From: an uncultured Alphaproteobacteria bacterium
GTDB taxonomy: Bacteria > Pseudomonadota > Alphaproteobacteria > HIMB59 > GCA-002718135
Direction: 5' to 3'
NCBI GenBank assembly: GCA_902575815.1
Contig: CACGTA010000005.1
Location: 2,213 to 66,212 of the forward strand
Length of the DNA: 64,000 bases
Within the stretch, counting starts at the first letter, position 1. Each line of letters begins with the position of its first letter. Shown here piece by piece: positions 14,707-22,790 of the stretch. The notes under the pieces are model-generated. The model was not told the DNA's origin and searched no databases. It saw only the letters and a list, made by a program, of their open reading frames with translations. Both the position numbers and the translations under genes were made by a program.

Positions 14707-15414
14707 CTAAGTAAGTTTTAAAATGCCAGAATAATCTAATATTATATTACTTATTTTCCATTTAAATCCATTAAATTTGAATATTACAGTAAAAGGTATA
14801 TCTTGATGATAAACTGATAACTTAAAATGGATTGGGGTAATAAAAAAAAAATATTGCGTAGCATTAAGTTTATTAATTAATCTATTAATTTTAATTTTTA
14901 AACTTTCTTTATTTTCATCAAAAGGAGTGTTTTGCGAATTATCGTTTGTATTATTAACAATATCAGACTCTTTATTAATATTAGATTCTGAAATATATTC
15001 ATTAAAGCTATAATATCCGATGTTCATTAAATATTTTTGAAAATAAATAGGTAATTCTTTAGAGTTATCATAAAAATAAAGCATAATTTTTGGATCAGAT
15101 AATTCTCTCGATATAGATTTAGAAGAATTAAGAAATGTTTTTAAAATAAATTCCTCACTAAATTCACCACTCAAATCAGTATTATTATTTTTTATAATCA
15201 AAATTTTTGATAAATTTGTTAGATTACTTTCAATAAATTTTTTTGAATTTATATACAAATTATTGCTTAATTCACTATCAAGTACGAAACTTGATAATGA
15301 TTCATAATTTTTACCACCAACATAATTAGATATTTTTACAAAACTGAAAATAAAAGTTGTAAATAGATATAAAAAAATAAAAAGAATTATAAAAATTAAA
15401 AATTTAATATTCAT
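14707..15414 (-). CDS. Hypothetical N-terminally membrane-anchored Asn/Ser-rich protein
   Basis: A single N-terminal TM segment and no recognisable motif. The long ORF has no competing frame. Confidence 0.5.
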   Translation of the reverse strand: MNIKFLIFIILFIFLYLFTTFIFSFVKISNYVGGKNYESLSSFVLDSELSNNLYINSKKFIESNLTNLSKILIIKNNNTDLSGEFSEEFILKTFLNSSKSISRELSDPKIMLYFYDNSKELPIYFQKYLMNIGYYSFNEYISESNINKESDIVNNTNDNSQNTPFDENKESLKIKINRLINKLNATQYFFFITPIHFKLSVYHQDIPFTVIFKFNGFKWKISNIILDYSGILKLT

Positions 15415-16764: not shown

Positions 16765-18083
16765 TATTTTTTTGCTACACGCTGATAAATTTTCGGCATG
16801 TAGACAAATAGAGTGAGTGCTCTTACAATAAAGAAAAAGCAGAGAGACATCCATAATCCTGTATTCCCAAAACTTGCTATTAAAAAGAAAGAGACAACAA
16901 CATAGATGGCAACAGAGATGATCATGGCATTACGCAGTTCTGTTGTTTGCGATGCACCAACAAAAATACCATCAAATTGAAAACAAAAAGAAGCAGCAAA
17001 AGGAATGATGATTACCCAGTAGGAGAATGAAAAACTAATCTCTCGAATGTCAGGTAAATCAGTCATCATAATAATAAAATAATTTTTACTAAAGAAAAAG
17101 ATTACACATATCACTAGGCCAGTTACTGTACTTAAGATAAAGGAATTTTTTATGACATCTTTTAATAATTGTTTATTTTTTGATCCAATAGAATACCCAA
17201 CAATACCCTCTGTGGAGAAAGCATAAGCATCAAGAACATAGGAAGAAAGCATAATAAGATTAAGCAATATTACATTAGCAGCAACAGTTTCTTCACTGAT
17301 GGATGTTCCTAGATAAGTAAAATATAAAAAAGAAAAAGAAAGAAGAATAGATCTAATAAATATATTAAAATTTATATTAAAAATATTTTTAACTTTATTG
17401 AAATTGAAAATTTTTTTTATATCGAATTTCAATTTAGTCATCTTTTTTAAGTCATAGAATGTATAAAATAAAAAAATTATTGTTGTCAGCGTTGAGGCAA
17501 CAAGCGTCCCTAACGCAACACCTAAAACGTTTAAGTCAAAATATAAAACAAAAACTAAGCTGAAAATTATATTTGAAATGGAATAAAAACCTACAATGAG
17601 ACTGGATGTTTTTGTTTTTTGTAAACCAATAAACAATCCTGTGATCACAAAAATAGTTAGCTCACCAAAAGAAGAGTAAATACGAAAAGTAAAATAATCT
17701 TTGAAATAAAGTTTTGTTTCCTTCGATAACTCAAAAATAGATAAGGAAATATTATATATGTATTTTTGAAAAATAACTAATAAGAGGGAAATAATAATAA
17801 CAAAAGAAATATTTCTTAAAAAAATATTTATGATTTCTTCATAATTTTTGGATCCATCTGCTTGTGCTATCATTCCAACCGTACCTGATCGTAAAAAACC
17901 TAAACTACCAAAAAGAATGGAAAAGACACTTGCCGCAATACTTGTAGCAACCAAGTAACTAGCATTATCAAGGTTGCCCATCAAACCCGTATCAACAATA
18001 GCCACAAAAGGAATGACTAAATTTGCAAAGAAAATAGGGATAGATAGTTTAAAAATATTTTGAATGGATGATATTGACGTCAT
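16761..18083 (-). CDS. MATE family efflux transporter
   Basis: 12 TM helices and an N-terminus ([23 protein letters not shown]) typical of the MatE/DinF type. Confidence 0.8.
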
Positions 18084-18152
18084 TTTAAGAATAAGAATTT
18101 TAATAAGTTAATTGTTTTGAGGTTTTTTAAAATTTGTTCAAGTAGTAAGAAT

Positions 18153-18180
18153 AAAAAAACCCCCGTATGTGGGGGTTTTA
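18153..18180 (-). terminator. Rho-independent terminator on the minus strand (CCCCC acauac GGGGG UUUUUUU), 70 nt upstream of the MATE start codon
   Basis: 5-bp all-GC stem followed by 7 U on the minus strand. On the plus strand the tail is only TTTTA. Confidence 0.6.
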
Positions 18181-18353
18181 TAAATTCGGCTCATCACCTA
18201 ATGCGAGGCCTTTTAAAAAAAGGTCTGCTTAAATTGCTTGTTTAGCTTTGGTTGTGGACACCACCCTTATTGTGTTGGCGGACTCATTTTTTTAACTCCT
18301 TTACTTGGGAGCACGATCAATTTTAACTATATGAGATTCTAATTTTTTTTCAA
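18181..18353 (-). promoter_or_regulatory. Candidate leader or attenuator RNA for the MATE gene: promoter-like TTGAAA-N16-TATAGT, SD AAGGAG and a 6-codon uORF (MSPPTQ*)
   Basis: On the plus strand the -35 is at 18348-18353 and the -10 at 18326-18331. The SD is at 18297-18302 and the uORF at 18267-18287. The segment is unusually GC-rich for an intergenic region in this genome. Confidence 0.35.
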
Positions 18354-18460
18354 ATAGAATATTGGTAAAAACTAATACTAAAGTATTTGGCAAATGAATT
18401 AAAAAGAATATAATTCACTATCTTTATTTCTGAAATCTTATAAAGCTCTCATAAGTTTAA

Positions 18461-18940
18461 ATGAAAATTGGCAAATACAAATACGAATTTGATTTCTTTA
18501 GTTGGATAAAAAAAACAGAACTCGTAGAGCTAGATAGAGTTAATCCATCTGATGATCCTGTTCGCCCTGAACTTGATAATGATTTTCGTAGAGCAAAGGG
18601 AAGAAAAATTTTCGGTCTAAAGTATAAAGACGATATTGAAGGCGTAGCTTGTTTTGCTTTTACTAACGAAATACCCACAACTATTAAAGAAATGGATTTA
18701 ATGAGCATTGAGGAAGATCAAGCAACCATTCCTATTGCTTACACAGTCTGGTCTTTTAAAAAAGGTGCAGGGAAAAAAATTATGAAAGAGTTACAAAAAT
18801 ACATTAAAGAAAAAAAGCAATTTCAAAGCATTGTTACTCTTTCCCCTCTAACTCCTGTTGCTACCCATTATCATATTCGAAATGGCGCAAGATTAATTAA
18901 AATTAACCCTACAACACAGAACTTTGAATATAAAATTTAA
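18461..18940 (+). CDS. Small GNAT-fold-like protein (putative acyl-CoA N-acyltransferase)
   Basis: Motif-A-like WSFKKGAGKKIMKEL and C-terminal SPLTPVATHYHIRNGA. This is a weak recognition-level call. Confidence 0.4.
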   Translation: MKIGKYKYEFDFFSWIKKTELVELDRVNPSDDPVRPELDNDFRRAKGRKIFGLKYKDDIEGVACFAFTNEIPTTIKEMDLMSIEEDQATIPIAYTVWSFKKGAGKKIMKELQKYIKEKKQFQSIVTLSPLTPVATHYHIRNGARLIKINPTTQNFEYKI

Positions 18941-18945
18941 GAATT

Positions 18946-19740
18946 TTATTCAGAAATAGTTGTTGTTGATTTTACATAATACGCATCAAGATAACAAGAT
19001 CCATCTGTCCACTCATCAGCATAAAGACTTGTGGATGTTCCAAATGCTATATCAATTTTAGGAGCTATTAATCCAACAGTATAATTAGATTCTAAACTAT
19101 AAATTTGGGTAAAAGTATCAGTATTTACATCGGGATCGTCCATAGCCAGTCCGTATTTGCCAGTTAGACTTGATATATCTTTTGTATAATTTGTGGTTTG
19201 ATTCGATCCGCTATCACAAGCTGCATTTGCACAAATTGTTGTTCCGCCTCCTGTTGTATCTGTCTGTAAATAAAATACATTTTCTTCTGCATTAGCAGCA
19301 GCATCAGCTTCACTAGCTTCACATACTCCATACTGCAAAGATTTATATTTACCAGTCGTAGAATTATAAGTAGAATCAGATTCTGTTCTACACCAACAAT
19401 TACTGTCTATTTCCACATAACCTTTCATTGAAAATTCTCTTGTTAAAGTGGGCTTAACATGGCTAAAAGTAGTACCAATTGGAAGTCCAGAGGTTGAAAC
19501 AAATGATCCTACCTCTGATCCAGCTGTTACAGAAGCAACATCAAAAGTTTTATTCCCAGTTCCAACTGTTGTAGCGCCTGTGCAAGTTGTGTCAGTCTTA
19601 CTAGCAAGTGGAGCTGCGGTGCACAGTTCTATTTTTGTTAATGTAACTTTATAAACTGTTGCTTCACCAAGTTCTGCAAAAGACTGAAAAGAAAAATTGA
19701 GACAAAATAATAGTGACAAAAGTGATATTATAATTTTCAT
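18946..19740 (-). CDS. Secreted Thr/Ser/Gly-rich protein with 8 Cys, function unknown
   Basis: Signal peptide MKIIISLLSLLFCLNFSFQSFA. The mature part has 8 Cys. Its start overlaps the upstream gene's stop by ATGA. Confidence 0.6.
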   Translation of the reverse strand: MKIIISLLSLLFCLNFSFQSFAELGEATVYKVTLTKIELCTAAPLASKTDTTCTGATTVGTGNKTFDVASVTAGSEVGSFVSTSGLPIGTTFSHVKPTLTREFSMKGYVEIDSNCWCRTESDSTYNSTTGKYKSLQYGVCEASEADAAANAEENVFYLQTDTTGGGTTICANAACDSGSNQTTNYTKDISSLTGKYGLAMDDPDVNTDTFTQIYSLESNYTVGLIAPKIDIAFGTSTSLYADEWTDGSCYLDAYYVKSTTTISE

Positions 19741-20624
19741 TCGACTAACCTCGTTATTACTACTCCCGTACCTTCTGACTCAATGGCTTGTTTGTTACTC
19801 CTTCTAACAATACTAAGTAGTTCTGTACTCATATCAAATTGAACAAATGCTTTTTCACTAACAAAATCTGTTGACGCAGTTGGTGTTTGTCTTGGTGGAT
19901 AAATAAAAGTAATTTTTGCAAAGTTATCAGTTCCAGAAATATTATTATCATCAAAACCTACTTCTGCTATTAAATTTGGTGTTAATGCCATTTCTAAACT
20001 AAGTGTTTCACCTTGAGAATCTTTTGAATTTTTTTCAGCTTCCCATCTATATGATTTACCAATTACATTTACCCATGGAATATATGGAACTTGACCAACA
20101 ATACTAATATCATAACCATCAAGTGTTCTTTCAGTGTAGTCTCCAACAGTTTTACCTCCACTTATTGCAGAATAATAATTTGCTAGGGCATCAAAAGCAG
20201 ATGATCGTAGTTCTACCCCAACACTAGCTCGAGCATTTCCTTTTTCATCGTAATCAAAGAAAACATTTGCGCCTGTCATAGAAGTTTTACTATCTGATAA
20301 TTTTCTGTAACCTACTCCAATATTTCCAGCTATTCGACTTTCACCTCTAATTTTGTGATCACTTAATTGTAACTGGATAAAAGTTGCATCAACACTATGG
20401 TGTATTGCAATTGGCCTTACTGTTACAATAGAAAATTCAGGTTTATAATCCTCCCCCATGTCAATACGAACTTGTGTATCGCCCTCACCATCTAATATGT
20501 TTTCTACAGCTTCGGATAGTCCTGATGTAAATCGATCTATAAGTCCTTGTTTAATTTTTTCTTCATCTCCAGCAAAGACATTAAAAGAAATAAGAAAAGT
20601 GATTAGAAGTATTATTAAACGCAT
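19737..20624 (-). CDS. Inverse-autotransporter (intimin/invasin-type) beta-barrel domain protein without a passenger
   Basis: Signal peptide MRLIILLITFLISFNVFA. The pattern matches the intimin beta-domain: NIGVGYRKL, ANVFFDYD, SVGVELRS, ALANYY, ERTLDGYDISIVGQVPYIPW. Confidence 0.55.
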   Translation of the reverse strand: MRLIILLITFLISFNVFAGDEEKIKQGLIDRFTSGLSEAVENILDGEGDTQVRIDMGEDYKPEFSIVTVRPIAIHHSVDATFIQLQLSDHKIRGESRIAGNIGVGYRKLSDSKTSMTGANVFFDYDEKGNARASVGVELRSSAFDALANYYSAISGGKTVGDYTERTLDGYDISIVGQVPYIPWVNVIGKSYRWEAEKNSKDSQGETLSLEMALTPNLIAEVGFDDNNISGTDNFAKITFIYPPRQTPTASTDFVSEKAFVQFDMSTELLSIVRRSNKQAIESEGTGVVITRLVE

Positions 20625-20640
20625 AAGTATTTATAATCAT

Positions 20641-20678
20641 AATACTAATAAAATATAAGTGTTTTTTCTATTAGTATT
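20641..20678 (-). repeat. Perfect 10-bp inverted repeat (AATACTAATA / TATTAGTATT) with an 18-nt spacer
   Basis: Read directly from the sequence. It lies between the HExxH gene and the barrel gene and overlaps the HExxH gene's stop codon. Confidence 0.4.
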
Positions 20679-21565
20679 TATTTCCATCCTCGAAACCAAT
20701 TTGTTTCAGCATATTCTGATAACTTATATGTACACCAATAGCTGTTTTTCTTAATTTTTTTGAATTTTTTATGATTATATCTTTCTGGCCAATCATCTTC
20801 AAAACCATAAGATCCTCCATGAGCCCTACCTGATCTTTCTGCTAAATGACAGACCATAGGCAATGGATCATATGGATCATCAGACGTTGGCGCCATATAA
20901 ACTGAGTCTTTCAAATCAGGGCAACTTTCATCACCATGTTCATAAATCATTTTACCAAGAATATACTGATTGTTTTCATTACTGAGAACACTAGGGCCAC
21001 TAACATGGCCGTTTCGATTTCCTTTCGTACATTTCCATGAAAAACCGTTACCATGAAGTAATTCGTGAATTGTAATTTTTATAATATCTTCTCTGGAGCC
21101 AGCTCTCTTCATAAATGTATAACCTGAGTGAACACCCATTTGCCCACCATCCCTATGTGTAAAGCTATCAACAAATGAGTAATATAATTTTTTTGGATTA
21201 TTAAAACCAAGATTTTGAATAAAATAATCTGGATAATTATTATTCCATCCTTTTTTTGTGCCTTTCTTATCAAGTCTTACAAAAGAAATATCTAATTTAC
21301 CATCTTGCCTATAATCTAATTTATATTTCTGTTTATTGCCGGTTAGCTCAAACATTTTCTGATTCATTTCTTCAATTATTTTTTCCAATTCACCATTAAT
21401 GTCTAACTCATTGTCTTTTCCATTTATATCAAGCATATAAATAAAATGGATTTGGTAATCATCATTTGTATCTGGTTGGTCTTCAAAAAATCTACCATCT
21501 TTAAGATCTGAAGCATTTGCTGAATTAAAGATTAAAACCAGGGTAATTATAAAAATATATTTCAT
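20678..21565 (-). CDS. Secreted putative zinc metallopeptidase-like protein (HExxH)
   Basis: Signal peptide MKYIFIITLVLIFNSANA. It has a single zincin-type motif, TIHELLHGNG, and several Cys. No closer family is recognised. Confidence 0.45.
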   Translation of the reverse strand: MKYIFIITLVLIFNSANASDLKDGRFFEDQPDTNDDYQIHFIYMLDINGKDNELDINGELEKIIEEMNQKMFELTGNKQKYKLDYRQDGKLDISFVRLDKKGTKKGWNNNYPDYFIQNLGFNNPKKLYYSFVDSFTHRDGGQMGVHSGYTFMKRAGSREDIIKITIHELLHGNGFSWKCTKGNRNGHVSGPSVLSNENNQYILGKMIYEHGDESCPDLKDSVYMAPTSDDPYDPLPMVCHLAERSGRAHGGSYGFEDDWPERYNHKKFKKIKKNSYWCTYKLSEYAETNWFRGWK

Positions 21566-21683
21566 AATATAATTAAATATTAAATTTTTTATTAACTCAA
21601 CTAAGTTTCAAAAAAATTCCCTTTTTATTTTAAAATATGAACTATTTACTTAACAAATCGATATAAAATAAATATTGTTGGAA

Positions 21684-22790
21684 ATGGCCTACCAGATAAA
21701 TACTAATTATTCCGTTACTTTTGATGATGTTCTGCTCTCACCAGCATATTCGGAAATTAAACCTAAAGAGGTAGATACATCGATTACCATTGGAAAAGTC
21801 AAATTACATATTCCAATACTCTCTGCTGCTATGGATACAGTGACAGAGAATAAAATGGCGATCAATCTCGCACTACATGGTGGTCTAGGAGTTATTCACC
21901 GTAATATGCCAATTGATAAACAAGCAAGCGAAGTTAACAAAGTTCATAGCTTTAAAGTTAACGCTAAAAAATTTCAACATGCTGTAATTAATTCTAATGG
22001 AAAGATTGCGGTGGGCGCTGCAATTGGTGTTGAAAATAACGCGTACTTACGACTATTAGAATTATTAAAAGTTGGTGTTGATATAGTCTTTATTGATGTT
22101 GCTCATGCACATACAAAAACAACTTTACTGTTTATTGAAAAAGCAAAAAAAGTTTTAAAGAAAACACCTCTCATAGTTGGAAACATCGCTACAAAAAAAG
22201 CTGCATCAGATTTAATTAGTGCTGGTGTAGATGCTATTAAAGTAGGTATTGGACCAGGATCAATTTGTACAACAAGGGTTGTGACTGGTGTTGGTATTCC
22301 TCAACTCTCCGCTGTGATGGATACATATCAAGCTGCCAAAAAATTTAAAATTCCTGTGATTGCAGATGGAGGAATAAAAACATCAGGTGATATTGCGAAA
22401 GCTATAGCAGGCGGTGCAAGTGCTTGCATGATAGGGTCTTTATTTGCCGGCACTGAAGAATCACCAGGAAAATTATTAACGATTAAAGGTAAAAAATTTA
22501 AATCCTATAGAGGTATGGGTTCGGTAGGAGCAATGCAAAAAGGTTCTTTTGATCGATACTCCCAAGAAGAAACAAAGAATGCAAAAAAATTAGTGGCAGA
22601 AGGTGTGGAAGGGATGGTTCCATATAAAGGTAAAATAGAAGATGTAACGTATCAACTTGTTGGCGGTTTAAAATCGTCAATGGGTTACACTGGTCATAAA
22701 ACAATTAAGAAAATGCAAGGCAATTGTAAGTTTGTGTTTATTTCTAAAGCAGGAGCCCGCGAAAGTAATGTCCACGATGTCATTATGTAA
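21684..22790 (+). CDS. guaB: IMP dehydrogenase lacking the CBS (Bateman) subdomain
   Basis: [17 protein letters not shown], catalytic loop [11 protein letters not shown], flap GMGSVGAM and C-terminal ESNVHDV. A roughly 18-aa linker replaces the roughly 120-aa CBS pair. I prefer the ATG at 21684 over the TTG at 21675. Confidence 0.85.

Follow-up and report, generated by a model that had tools for sequence, protein, structure and literature searches.

A predicted passenger-less inverse-autotransporter barrel and its co-encoded, Sec-exported partner form a closely linked gene pair in SAR11 bacteria

The locus considered here lies in a stretch of 64,000 nucleotides (nt) from an uncultured alphaproteobacterium (contig CACGTA010000005.1 of assembly GCA_902575815.1), which is called the window in what follows and to which all coordinates refer. 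Three consecutive genes on its minus strand are concerned: gene A (20678..21565), encoding 295 amino acids (aa) of a secreted HExxH protein with a predicted metzincin-like fold; gene B (19737..20624), encoding a 295-aa protein predicted to be an inverse-autotransporter beta-barrel without passenger; and gene C (18946..19740), encoding a 264-aa, Thr/Ser-rich protein with a signal for Sec export. The stop codon of B and the start codon of C share an ATGA (19737..19740, minus strand), an arrangement indicative of translational coupling. B and C form a two-gene module with near-obligate linkage, and A is a neighbour independent of this unit. A sequence-only reading of the locus had described three minus-strand open reading frames (ORFs) with signal peptides, a HELLHGNG motif in the first, an intimin/invasin-type barrel without passenger in the second, an orphan Thr/Ser-rich protein with 8 Cys in the third, the ATGA overlap, and housekeeping flanks. 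All of this was borne out by the ORF list and by the analyses that follow; the neighbours (a ccrM-type methyltransferase gene, a MATE transporter gene, guaB, purE and purK) were verified through the annotated syntenic locus L011 and by tblastn.

The signal peptides were judged by eye from sequence features. A short basic n-region and a hydrophobic core precede an AxA-like site in each protein (SANA before SD in A, NVFA before GD in B, QSFA before EL in C), so that the putative cuts fall between MKYIFIITLVLIFNSANA and SD in A, between MRLIILLITFLISFNVFA (20571..20624, minus strand) and GD in B, and between MKIIISLLSLLFCLNFSFQSFA (19675..19740, minus strand) and EL in C. This n-h-c/AxA layout is retained among the homologues of A, B and C alike, in the family alignment of B and family-wide in C. 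The AlphaFold2 (AF2) models of A and C both show a detached N-terminal helix, which in C comprises residues 2-15 and is followed by a stretch of low confidence.

B matches the Pfam profile PF11924 (IAT_beta) over residues 24-236 with 104.7 bits (cut-off 22.3; E 8.6e-30), a domain present in all listed B homologues. It also matches the intimin/invasin barrel chains 4E1S and 4E1T and, weakly, the NCBIfam models for invasin, SinH and intimin. An exhaustive HMMER search of a representative library yielded 1155 relatives at E <= 1e-3, and most of the best 150 of them measure 280-400 aa; one relative, P0366, is a long inverse autotransporter truncated by IS66. The layout of B comprises the signal peptide, an N-terminal segment of ~40 aa, the IAT_beta barrel, a linker and a C-terminal stub of 12 aa. 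With only 12-13 residues after the linker, the polypeptide carries no Big/Ig-like (immunoglobulin-like), lectin or other passenger, and Pfam detected no LysM or peptidoglycan-binding region, only the ~40 residues mentioned lying between signal peptide and barrel. In the long relatives P0311, P0319, P0324, P0327 and P0329, Cadherin or Fib_succ_major passengers follow directly upon the end of the IAT_beta profile. Their start aligns to B residues ~280-290 and B ends ~13 aa beyond, which implies that B stops where a passenger would start. Within the type Ve (inverse-autotransporter) beta-domain family we therefore place B among the barrel-only members, with a barrel predicted to be 12-stranded by homology to intimin.

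The end of B deserves particular attention. Residues 264-295 (DMSTELLSIVRRSNKQAIESEGTGVVITRLVE; 19740..19835, minus strand) consist of an alpha-turn/linker-like motif and then the 12-residue stub (EGTGVVITRLVE; 19740-19775, minus strand). The motif LL.KVRR.N.I.ES.G.GVVI.R of the last 30 residues is retained in all short barrels, those of 30-40% identity included. The barrels of inverse autotransporters are plugged by their own linker (PMC13078405), and in intimin this linker with the terminal strand has been described with the residues L437-V438-Q439...N441..N443..L446-E447-Y448 (PMC13078405). V273-R-R-x-N277-x-x-x-I281-E282 of B can be aligned with it by eye, its [IL]-E fitting L446-E447, and segment V273-E282 may correspond to the intimin linker and terminal strand. 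If this mapping is right, the 12 residues of the stub would emerge at the cell surface. B shares with intimin and invasin a homologous barrel and, by this putative mapping, the conserved [IL]-E at the end of the linker motif, but differs in having no passenger, LysM or Big domains in the same polypeptide. Conservation is even along the whole of B in 77 unique sequences, whose alignment has hardly any gaps; residues 271-290 rank among the most conserved (3.4-3.5 bits, the stub 3.5), and the N-terminal segment is less conserved.

The linkage of B with C was assessed from both sides. A scan for B in one genome per GTDB species gave 35 loci, nearly all from SAR11 or Pelagibacteraceae single-cell genomes, with one metagenome-assembled genome of MarineAlpha5; a scan for C in metagenomes gave 80 loci, 72 of them with room upstream of C. 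Both scans were pattern-based, and the counts are lower bounds. The ORF following B belongs to the C family in all 33 genome loci with downstream DNA (33/33), at B identities from 95% to 40%, and in nearly all loci the two genes either overlap by 1 or 4 nt or are no more than 6 nt apart. From the other side, B stands immediately upstream of C in 71 of the 72 metagenome loci, mostly with a 1- or 4-nt overlap and at guanine-plus-cytosine (GC) contents of 0.27-0.67. The genes downstream of four distant short barrels also match the C profile (P0312, E 2e-38; P0304, E 2e-28; P0300, E 2.5e-17; P0456, E 1e-62). The pairing was thus seen in more than 100 independent loci, at B identities of ~34-95% and in very different genomic contexts. 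One locus, L115, has 67% GC, and it is from GC content and a small number of contigs that the spread beyond SAR11 is judged. A tblastn search for plasmid carriage found no plasmid match for the high-GC C homologue; the high-GC short barrel matched only classical enterobacterial-type inverse autotransporters.

It could be supposed that B is a plain small outer-membrane protein or porin beside which C, an unrelated secreted protein, lies by chance. The absence of a passenger from B would agree with this, as would the fact that neither protein has an experimentally known function. The idea is nevertheless barely credible, since the linker closes the pore of inverse-autotransporter barrels (PMC13078405), and since a start/stop-overlap adjacency kept in more than 100 loci of varied context, at B identities of 34-95%, is hard to attribute to chance: the pairing survives too wide a divergence of B. 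The earlier idea of a separately encoded barrel and cargo agrees with this near-obligate, translationally coupled pairing, the surface display or secretion that it also invoked being a matter of interpretation to which we return below.

In most loci a single C is coupled 1:1 with B, and two tandem C paralogues follow B (B-C-C) in 12 of the 80 metagenome loci. The L065 array reads B'-X1-X2-B-C, where X1 and X2 are distant members of the C family, so that it amounts to B'-C'-C'-B-C. X1 and X2 (L065, 868-2958) are tandem 342-aa secreted, Cys-rich paralogues between the two barrels, and their similarity to the C profile is confined to its N-terminal half (E 4e-7 and 6e-8), from which it appears that the partner superfamily is wider than the profile that was built. 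On another contig (L130, 1087-1269) the barrel P0437, 29% identical to B, shares an ATGA with an ORF that has a signal peptide, is Cys-rich and is not recognisably C, only 61 aa of it lying on the contig; the coupling of a barrel with a secreted partner may accordingly extend beyond the C family.

C possesses 9 Cys, one of which lies within the signal peptide, leaving 8 in the mature protein, and is Thr/Ser/Gly-rich (15.5% Thr, 11% Ser). The search for relatives found 49 homologues. C has no match in Pfam, NCBIfam, PADLOC or PHROGs, Pfam returned nothing for seven further members either, and PDB sequence profiles gave a single insignificant match (E 0.41). The AF2 model (predicted local distance difference test, pLDDT, 85; predicted template-modelling score, pTM, 0.79) is all-beta, with strands of up to 14 residues. 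Foldseek found no meaningful match for it in the PDB (best E 0.17, template-modelling score, TM, ~0.1) and none in BFVD. C belongs to an undescribed protein family, confidently modelled but with a predicted fold unmatched in the PDB and BFVD, and this family merits a formal definition. In 105 unique sequences, a conserved N-terminal frame (~27-110, with the motifs Y.VT..K.ELC and GLPIGTTFTH) and a conserved C-terminal frame (~211-264, with PYTV, APKI.I.F.T and the terminal ..ITI[TS][ED]) enclose a hypervariable, indel-rich middle (~121-210). Two cysteine pairs recur, C40/C53 and C117 with C249 (window numbering), the latter being a probable long-range disulfide; the remaining Cys are type-specific.

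These characters bring to mind a polymerising fibre or coat subunit, for which B would be the anchor or assembly platform of a minimal pilus- or S-layer-like structure, a sub-variant of the display of C by B that is proposed below. Tandem C paralogues would then be major and minor subunits, as B-C-C and the B'-C'-C' of L065 would allow; conserved terminal beta-strands around a variable centre are found in flagellins and pilins, and a Thr/Ser/Gly-rich composition is that of fibre proteins. Such an assembly is nonetheless improbable, given that most loci hold one C coupled 1:1 to B, that the confident model of the monomer appears to be whole, no strand being absent from it, and that no likeness to a pilin or S-layer structure was found.

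The history of the pair can be read from its SAR11 relatives. The order purE-guaB-[A]-B-C-orf159-MATE-ccrM recurs in ~20 species-level SAR11 genomes, and another clade has the order aminotransferase-B-C-ccrM. The sequence-only reading had seen an inserted accessory islet here; a recent insertion is ruled out by this conserved guaB-ccrM position and by a normal GC content (0.31-0.35 across the three genes, like the surroundings). At the syntenic SAR11 loci, guaB and purE are 93-97% identical to those of the window in nearly all cases (one purE 88%), B is 60-95% identical and C 28-95%. B and C can be decoupled in both directions: L011 and L021-L026 combine a B of 86-88% identity with a 227-aa C type at only 36-41%, and L029, L034 and L107 have a B of 65-72% but a C of 88%. 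In sliding windows of DNA identity the switch occurs at ~nt 810-860 of the 888-nt B gene, a breakpoint zone at 19765..19815 (minus strand). L011, L021 and L024 show 85-92% over B and fall to 40-55% from this point, and L029, L034 and L107 rise there from ~70% to 80-92%. As the switch lies within the tail of B, a C allele carries the last ~25 codons of B along with it.

The final 6-8 residues of B co-vary with the C type across B lineages: tails ITRLVE or ISRLN accompany C types of ~264 aa, MARSN or MARTP the 227-aa type, IARTSE the 284-aa type and ISNGNS types of 229-243 aa. At least six discrete C types were distinguished. Between the window and L029 the synonymous divergence (dS) is 0.57 for C and 1.8 for B, a difference which confirms that the C cassette was transferred between lineages. 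Within one C type, B and C are both under purifying selection (omega 0.1-0.2), and no gene-wide positive selection was seen there. The SAR11 site is a fixed-position replacement locus with exchangeable C alleles. In this it is similar to the flagellin and O-antigen replacement loci of marine bacteria, which likewise have a fixed site, conserved flanks and discrete divergent alleles, and with which it shares conserved ends and a hypervariable centre in the C product.

Gene A has a different history. Its HELLHGNG lies at residues 167-174 (21044-21067, minus strand), and in 68 homologues H167, E168 and H171 are invariant and G174 nearly so; two Cys are likewise invariant, and two more nearly invariant. 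Although A belongs to no Pfam family, the view that it resembles nothing known had to be given up on account of its AF2 model (pLDDT 90, pTM 0.89): Foldseek gave 32 matches in the PDB at E <= 1e-3, and all those listed are metzincins or related zinc glycopeptidases, including catalytic domains of snake-venom adamalysins, ADAM8/17/33, ADAMTS-4, fragilysin and the O-glycopeptidases OgpA and Amuc_1438. The superposition is moderate (E ~1e-4, probability ~1.0, TM 0.35 when normalised by the query and ~0.5 when normalised by the target). A thus shares with the metzincins (adamalysin/ADAM M12B, OgpA-type O-glycopeptidases, fragilysin) the HExxHxxG motif and a match to the catalytic-domain fold. It differs from them in its lack of a Pfam family and in position +11: when HELLHGNGFSW is compared with HExxHxxGxx(H/D), the H, E, H and G are conserved, and the position of the third ligand is W, M, T, L or Y, not the canonical His/Asp. 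As its modelled fold suggests, A is most fittingly regarded as a secreted zinc peptidase that is metzincin-like and represents an undescribed family.

The sequence-only reading had united A, B and C in one secretion or processing module in which A would mature or release C. The common strand, the close spacing (53 nt between A and B), a signal peptide on all three products and the joint occurrence of A-B-C in 11 genome and 3 metagenome loci speak in its favour. The co-occurrence survey has not upheld this module, which we now regard as very improbable: of the 35 genome loci only 11, and of the 80 metagenome loci only 3, have A beside B, and A is missing from the syntenic L015-L020, L024 and L026, whose B is 87-93% identical, and from every more distant B-C locus. 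Where A stands beside B it is 95-99% identical to that of the window irrespective of the C type, and its 491 homologues are mostly located elsewhere in unrelated contexts. In one SAR11 genome (L009, 3289-4155) an A homologue lies between MTAP-like (PNP_UDP_1) and MtnA-like (IF-2B) genes, with overlapping ends, and at L010 (4783-7224) ~405-aa forms with an extra N-terminal region stand in tandem as paralogues, with a branched-chain ABC transporter and a gene of TauD type next to them. A consensus scan found no standard-type terminator between A and B. The spacer (20625-20677, minus strand) contains an AT-only inverted repeat, ATACTAATA...TATTAGTAT, with a 9-bp stem and a 17-nt loop, which was not scored as a terminator, and a promoter-like site, TTGAAG-17-TATAAT (10/12), occurs within the 3' end of A (20802-20774).

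Several features of the surroundings may be recorded. Between C and the MATE gene, convergent with C, lies an ORF of 159 aa (orf159, 18461-18940, plus strand) that the earlier reading overlooked; it is 85-96% conserved in all syntenic SAR11 loci, and its sole family signal is weak (E 0.01) and points to malonyl-CoA decarboxylase, namely to the GNAT-like domain at the C-terminus of that enzyme. The gap between MATE and orf159 (18084-18460) is, at 377 nt, unusually long for SAR11 and holds a strong promoter-like site (18387-18414, plus strand). A search for known RNA elements in 18000-22000 gave nothing but a sub-threshold, Phe_leader-like Rfam match outside the module (18150-18249, minus strand; 28 bits where the gathering score is 55; E 0.083) that is probably due to chance. 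Further away, a 235-aa Asn/Ser/Ile/Lys-rich ORF (14707-15414, minus strand) with an N-terminal hydrophobic segment and no family match sits in a pronounced GC dip (0.18-0.24) just upstream of ccrM.

We propose that B displays or secretes C in a two-partner variant of type Ve secretion similar to ZirT/ZirS, a reading to which we attach an even chance. According to this proposal, B would be exported by Sec and form its barrel, the linker plugging and crossing its own pore so that the 12-residue stub emerges at the surface. C, translated ~1:1 with B from the overlapping gene and exported by Sec, would supply the missing passenger function. The conserved N- and C-terminal beta-frame of C would be recognised by B, which may anchor C at the surface, possibly through pairing with the stub or with an extracellular beta-sheet; alternatively, B may release C, as is proposed for ZirT/ZirS. 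The hypervariable middle of C would face the environment, and C types would be swapped between SAR11 lineages by homologous recombination, with the upstream crossover in the last ~25 codons of B. The variation of C resembles that expected of a serotype-like surface determinant, for example a phage or grazer target or an adhesin. Set against an invariant B with a conserved, presumably extracellular stub, such variation favours a surface exposure of C. A physical contact between B and C, the location of C at the cell surface and a selective cause for its diversity are what we infer from these sequence patterns.

Several observations weigh against this proposal. The pore of B is expected to be filled by its own conserved linker, and a C that had already acquired a C117-C249 disulfide in the periplasm could pass only with difficulty through such a linker-filled 12-stranded barrel. 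No similarity connects the two proteins (best BLASTP E 3.6; hhalign probability of the two families 1%), and a hmmsearch with the C profile found no barrel-C fusion among 150 barrel relatives, long ones included. The confident model of C has no Ig-like match and hence does not point to the immunoglobulin superfamily, and ZirT carries C-terminal Ig-like domains that resemble its substrates, in contrast to the 12-residue stub of B, which has no Ig-like domain. The co-variation of B tail and C type could merely reflect linkage to the recombination boundary. Finally, the sole exception to the pairing, L108 (1781-3407), has two C genes without adjacent B on a 3.6-kb contig, in the order ccrM, phosphatase, C, C and a GC-rich hairpin, with an intergenic region of its own upstream of the C genes.

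Some of these points would suit a stoichiometric envelope complex in which C stays periplasmic, bound to the ~40-residue N-terminal segment of B or to the periplasmic face of the barrel. C might there substitute for the LysM or peptidoglycan-binding region that long inverse autotransporters have, or be a tether, a sensor or a chaperone-like partner, and nothing would be displayed. A Sec signal as the only export signal together with conserved disulfides, typical of periplasmic folding, the expected occupation of the pore by the linker, the lack of any likeness of C to known passengers and the absence of LysM from B are all compatible with it. Periplasmic partners, however, are normally not hypervariable, and here the middle of C is indel-rich and its alleles swap while B is conserved; moreover, outside its barrel B is best conserved in the presumed extracellular stub, and the N-terminal segment is less conserved. 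We consider a periplasmic C unlikely, though by no means negligible. A third position for C, as a plug inside the B barrel in the manner of LptD/LptE, was ruled out on size, as estimated from the intimin barrel structure, because a protein of 25 kDa does not fit inside a barrel of 12 strands.

The display or secretion of C by B has precedents. ZirT/ZirS/ZirU of Salmonella were reported by Gal-Mor 2008 (PMC2270342), and the concept of two-partner inverse autotransporters comes as a proposal from Heinz et al. 2016 (PMC4943183), where the secretion that depends on ZirT is given as shown by experiment, the barrel being required for the export of a co-encoded protein. The Zir system is similar to B-C in that the operon continues downstream of the barrel gene with one or sometimes several genes for Sec-exported, barrel-less partners (compare B-C-C), a barrel-dependent function being proposed. 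The differences are that the ZirS partners are Ig-like whereas C is a new family with neither an Ig-like nor any other PDB match, that the secretion of ZirS has been demonstrated whereas an export of C past the periplasm is what we infer from sequence, and that a population structure such as the allele swapping of C in SAR11 has not been described for Zir. The same study describes barrel-only inverse autotransporters and suggests that they are ancestral to the family (PMC4943183). B resembles this group in its IAT_beta domain and short tail; the sections consulted mention no dedicated non-homologous partner for the group, whereas here the partner is nearly universal, and the downstream genes were rated there solely on how similar they are to the barrel protein (PMC4943183). 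Both the barrel-only and the two-partner concept are thus already published there. A dedicated non-Ig partner family, its near-obligate linkage to the barrel, its unmatched predicted fold and its allele swapping in SAR11 find no mention in the sections consulted. The type Vb pair FhaC/FHA likewise has transporter and cargo in separate, co-transcribed genes, but FhaC is an Omp85 barrel of 16 strands that also bears POTRA domains, and a TPS domain is found in its cargo; the present pair has none of these.

Adhesin-type machinery had been thought unexpected in a streamlined planktonic lineage. This surprise is diminished not only by the 2016 description of barrel-only and two-partner inverse autotransporters (PMC4943183), but also by the first hypervariable region (HVR1) of Pelagibacter ubique HTCC1062, for which tandem 'Type V autotransporter' genes in alternation with 'unknown' genes (SAR11_0042-0046) are listed (Wilhelm et al. 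2007, PMC2217521, Table 7). In HTCC1002 there are four tandem divergent Type V genes (PMC2217521). The genes of both strains may be tandem B-C modules, their pattern resembling the arrangements of L065 (B'-X-X-B-C), L127 (B-C-B) and L053. The B-C locus differs from HVR1 in its position, since it lies between guaB and ccrM and not in HVR1-4. Among the top-ranked papers of a literature search linking SAR11 or Pelagibacter with inverse autotransporters, nothing relevant was found.

SAR11 is the most abundant marine bacterium, and very few cell-surface proteins can be recognised in it; what drives its enormous strain diversity and what its phages bind has yet to be explained. If a conserved barrel does present a swappable, typed partner, SAR11 would have a concrete and testable surface determinant outside the known glycosylation island, and C would be a plausible receptor or shield in interactions with phages and grazers. 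At the level of the family, it can tentatively be hypothesised that type V secretion has a widespread two-partner branch, so far unrecognised, of which barrel-only inverse autotransporters are the outer-membrane half and whose dedicated cargo is a new family with a fold not seen in the PDB and, in SAR11, a serotype-like, recombining surface determinant at a fixed site; we hold this broader view to be possible, if somewhat doubtful. Were it correct, the 'beta-only' inverse autotransporters would have an obligate partner, and the two-partner idea would extend past the Ig-like ZirS/SinI substrates of enterobacteria. The pair would then also offer a minimal system (~295 + 264 aa) in which to learn how the barrel of an inverse autotransporter handles a separate polypeptide.

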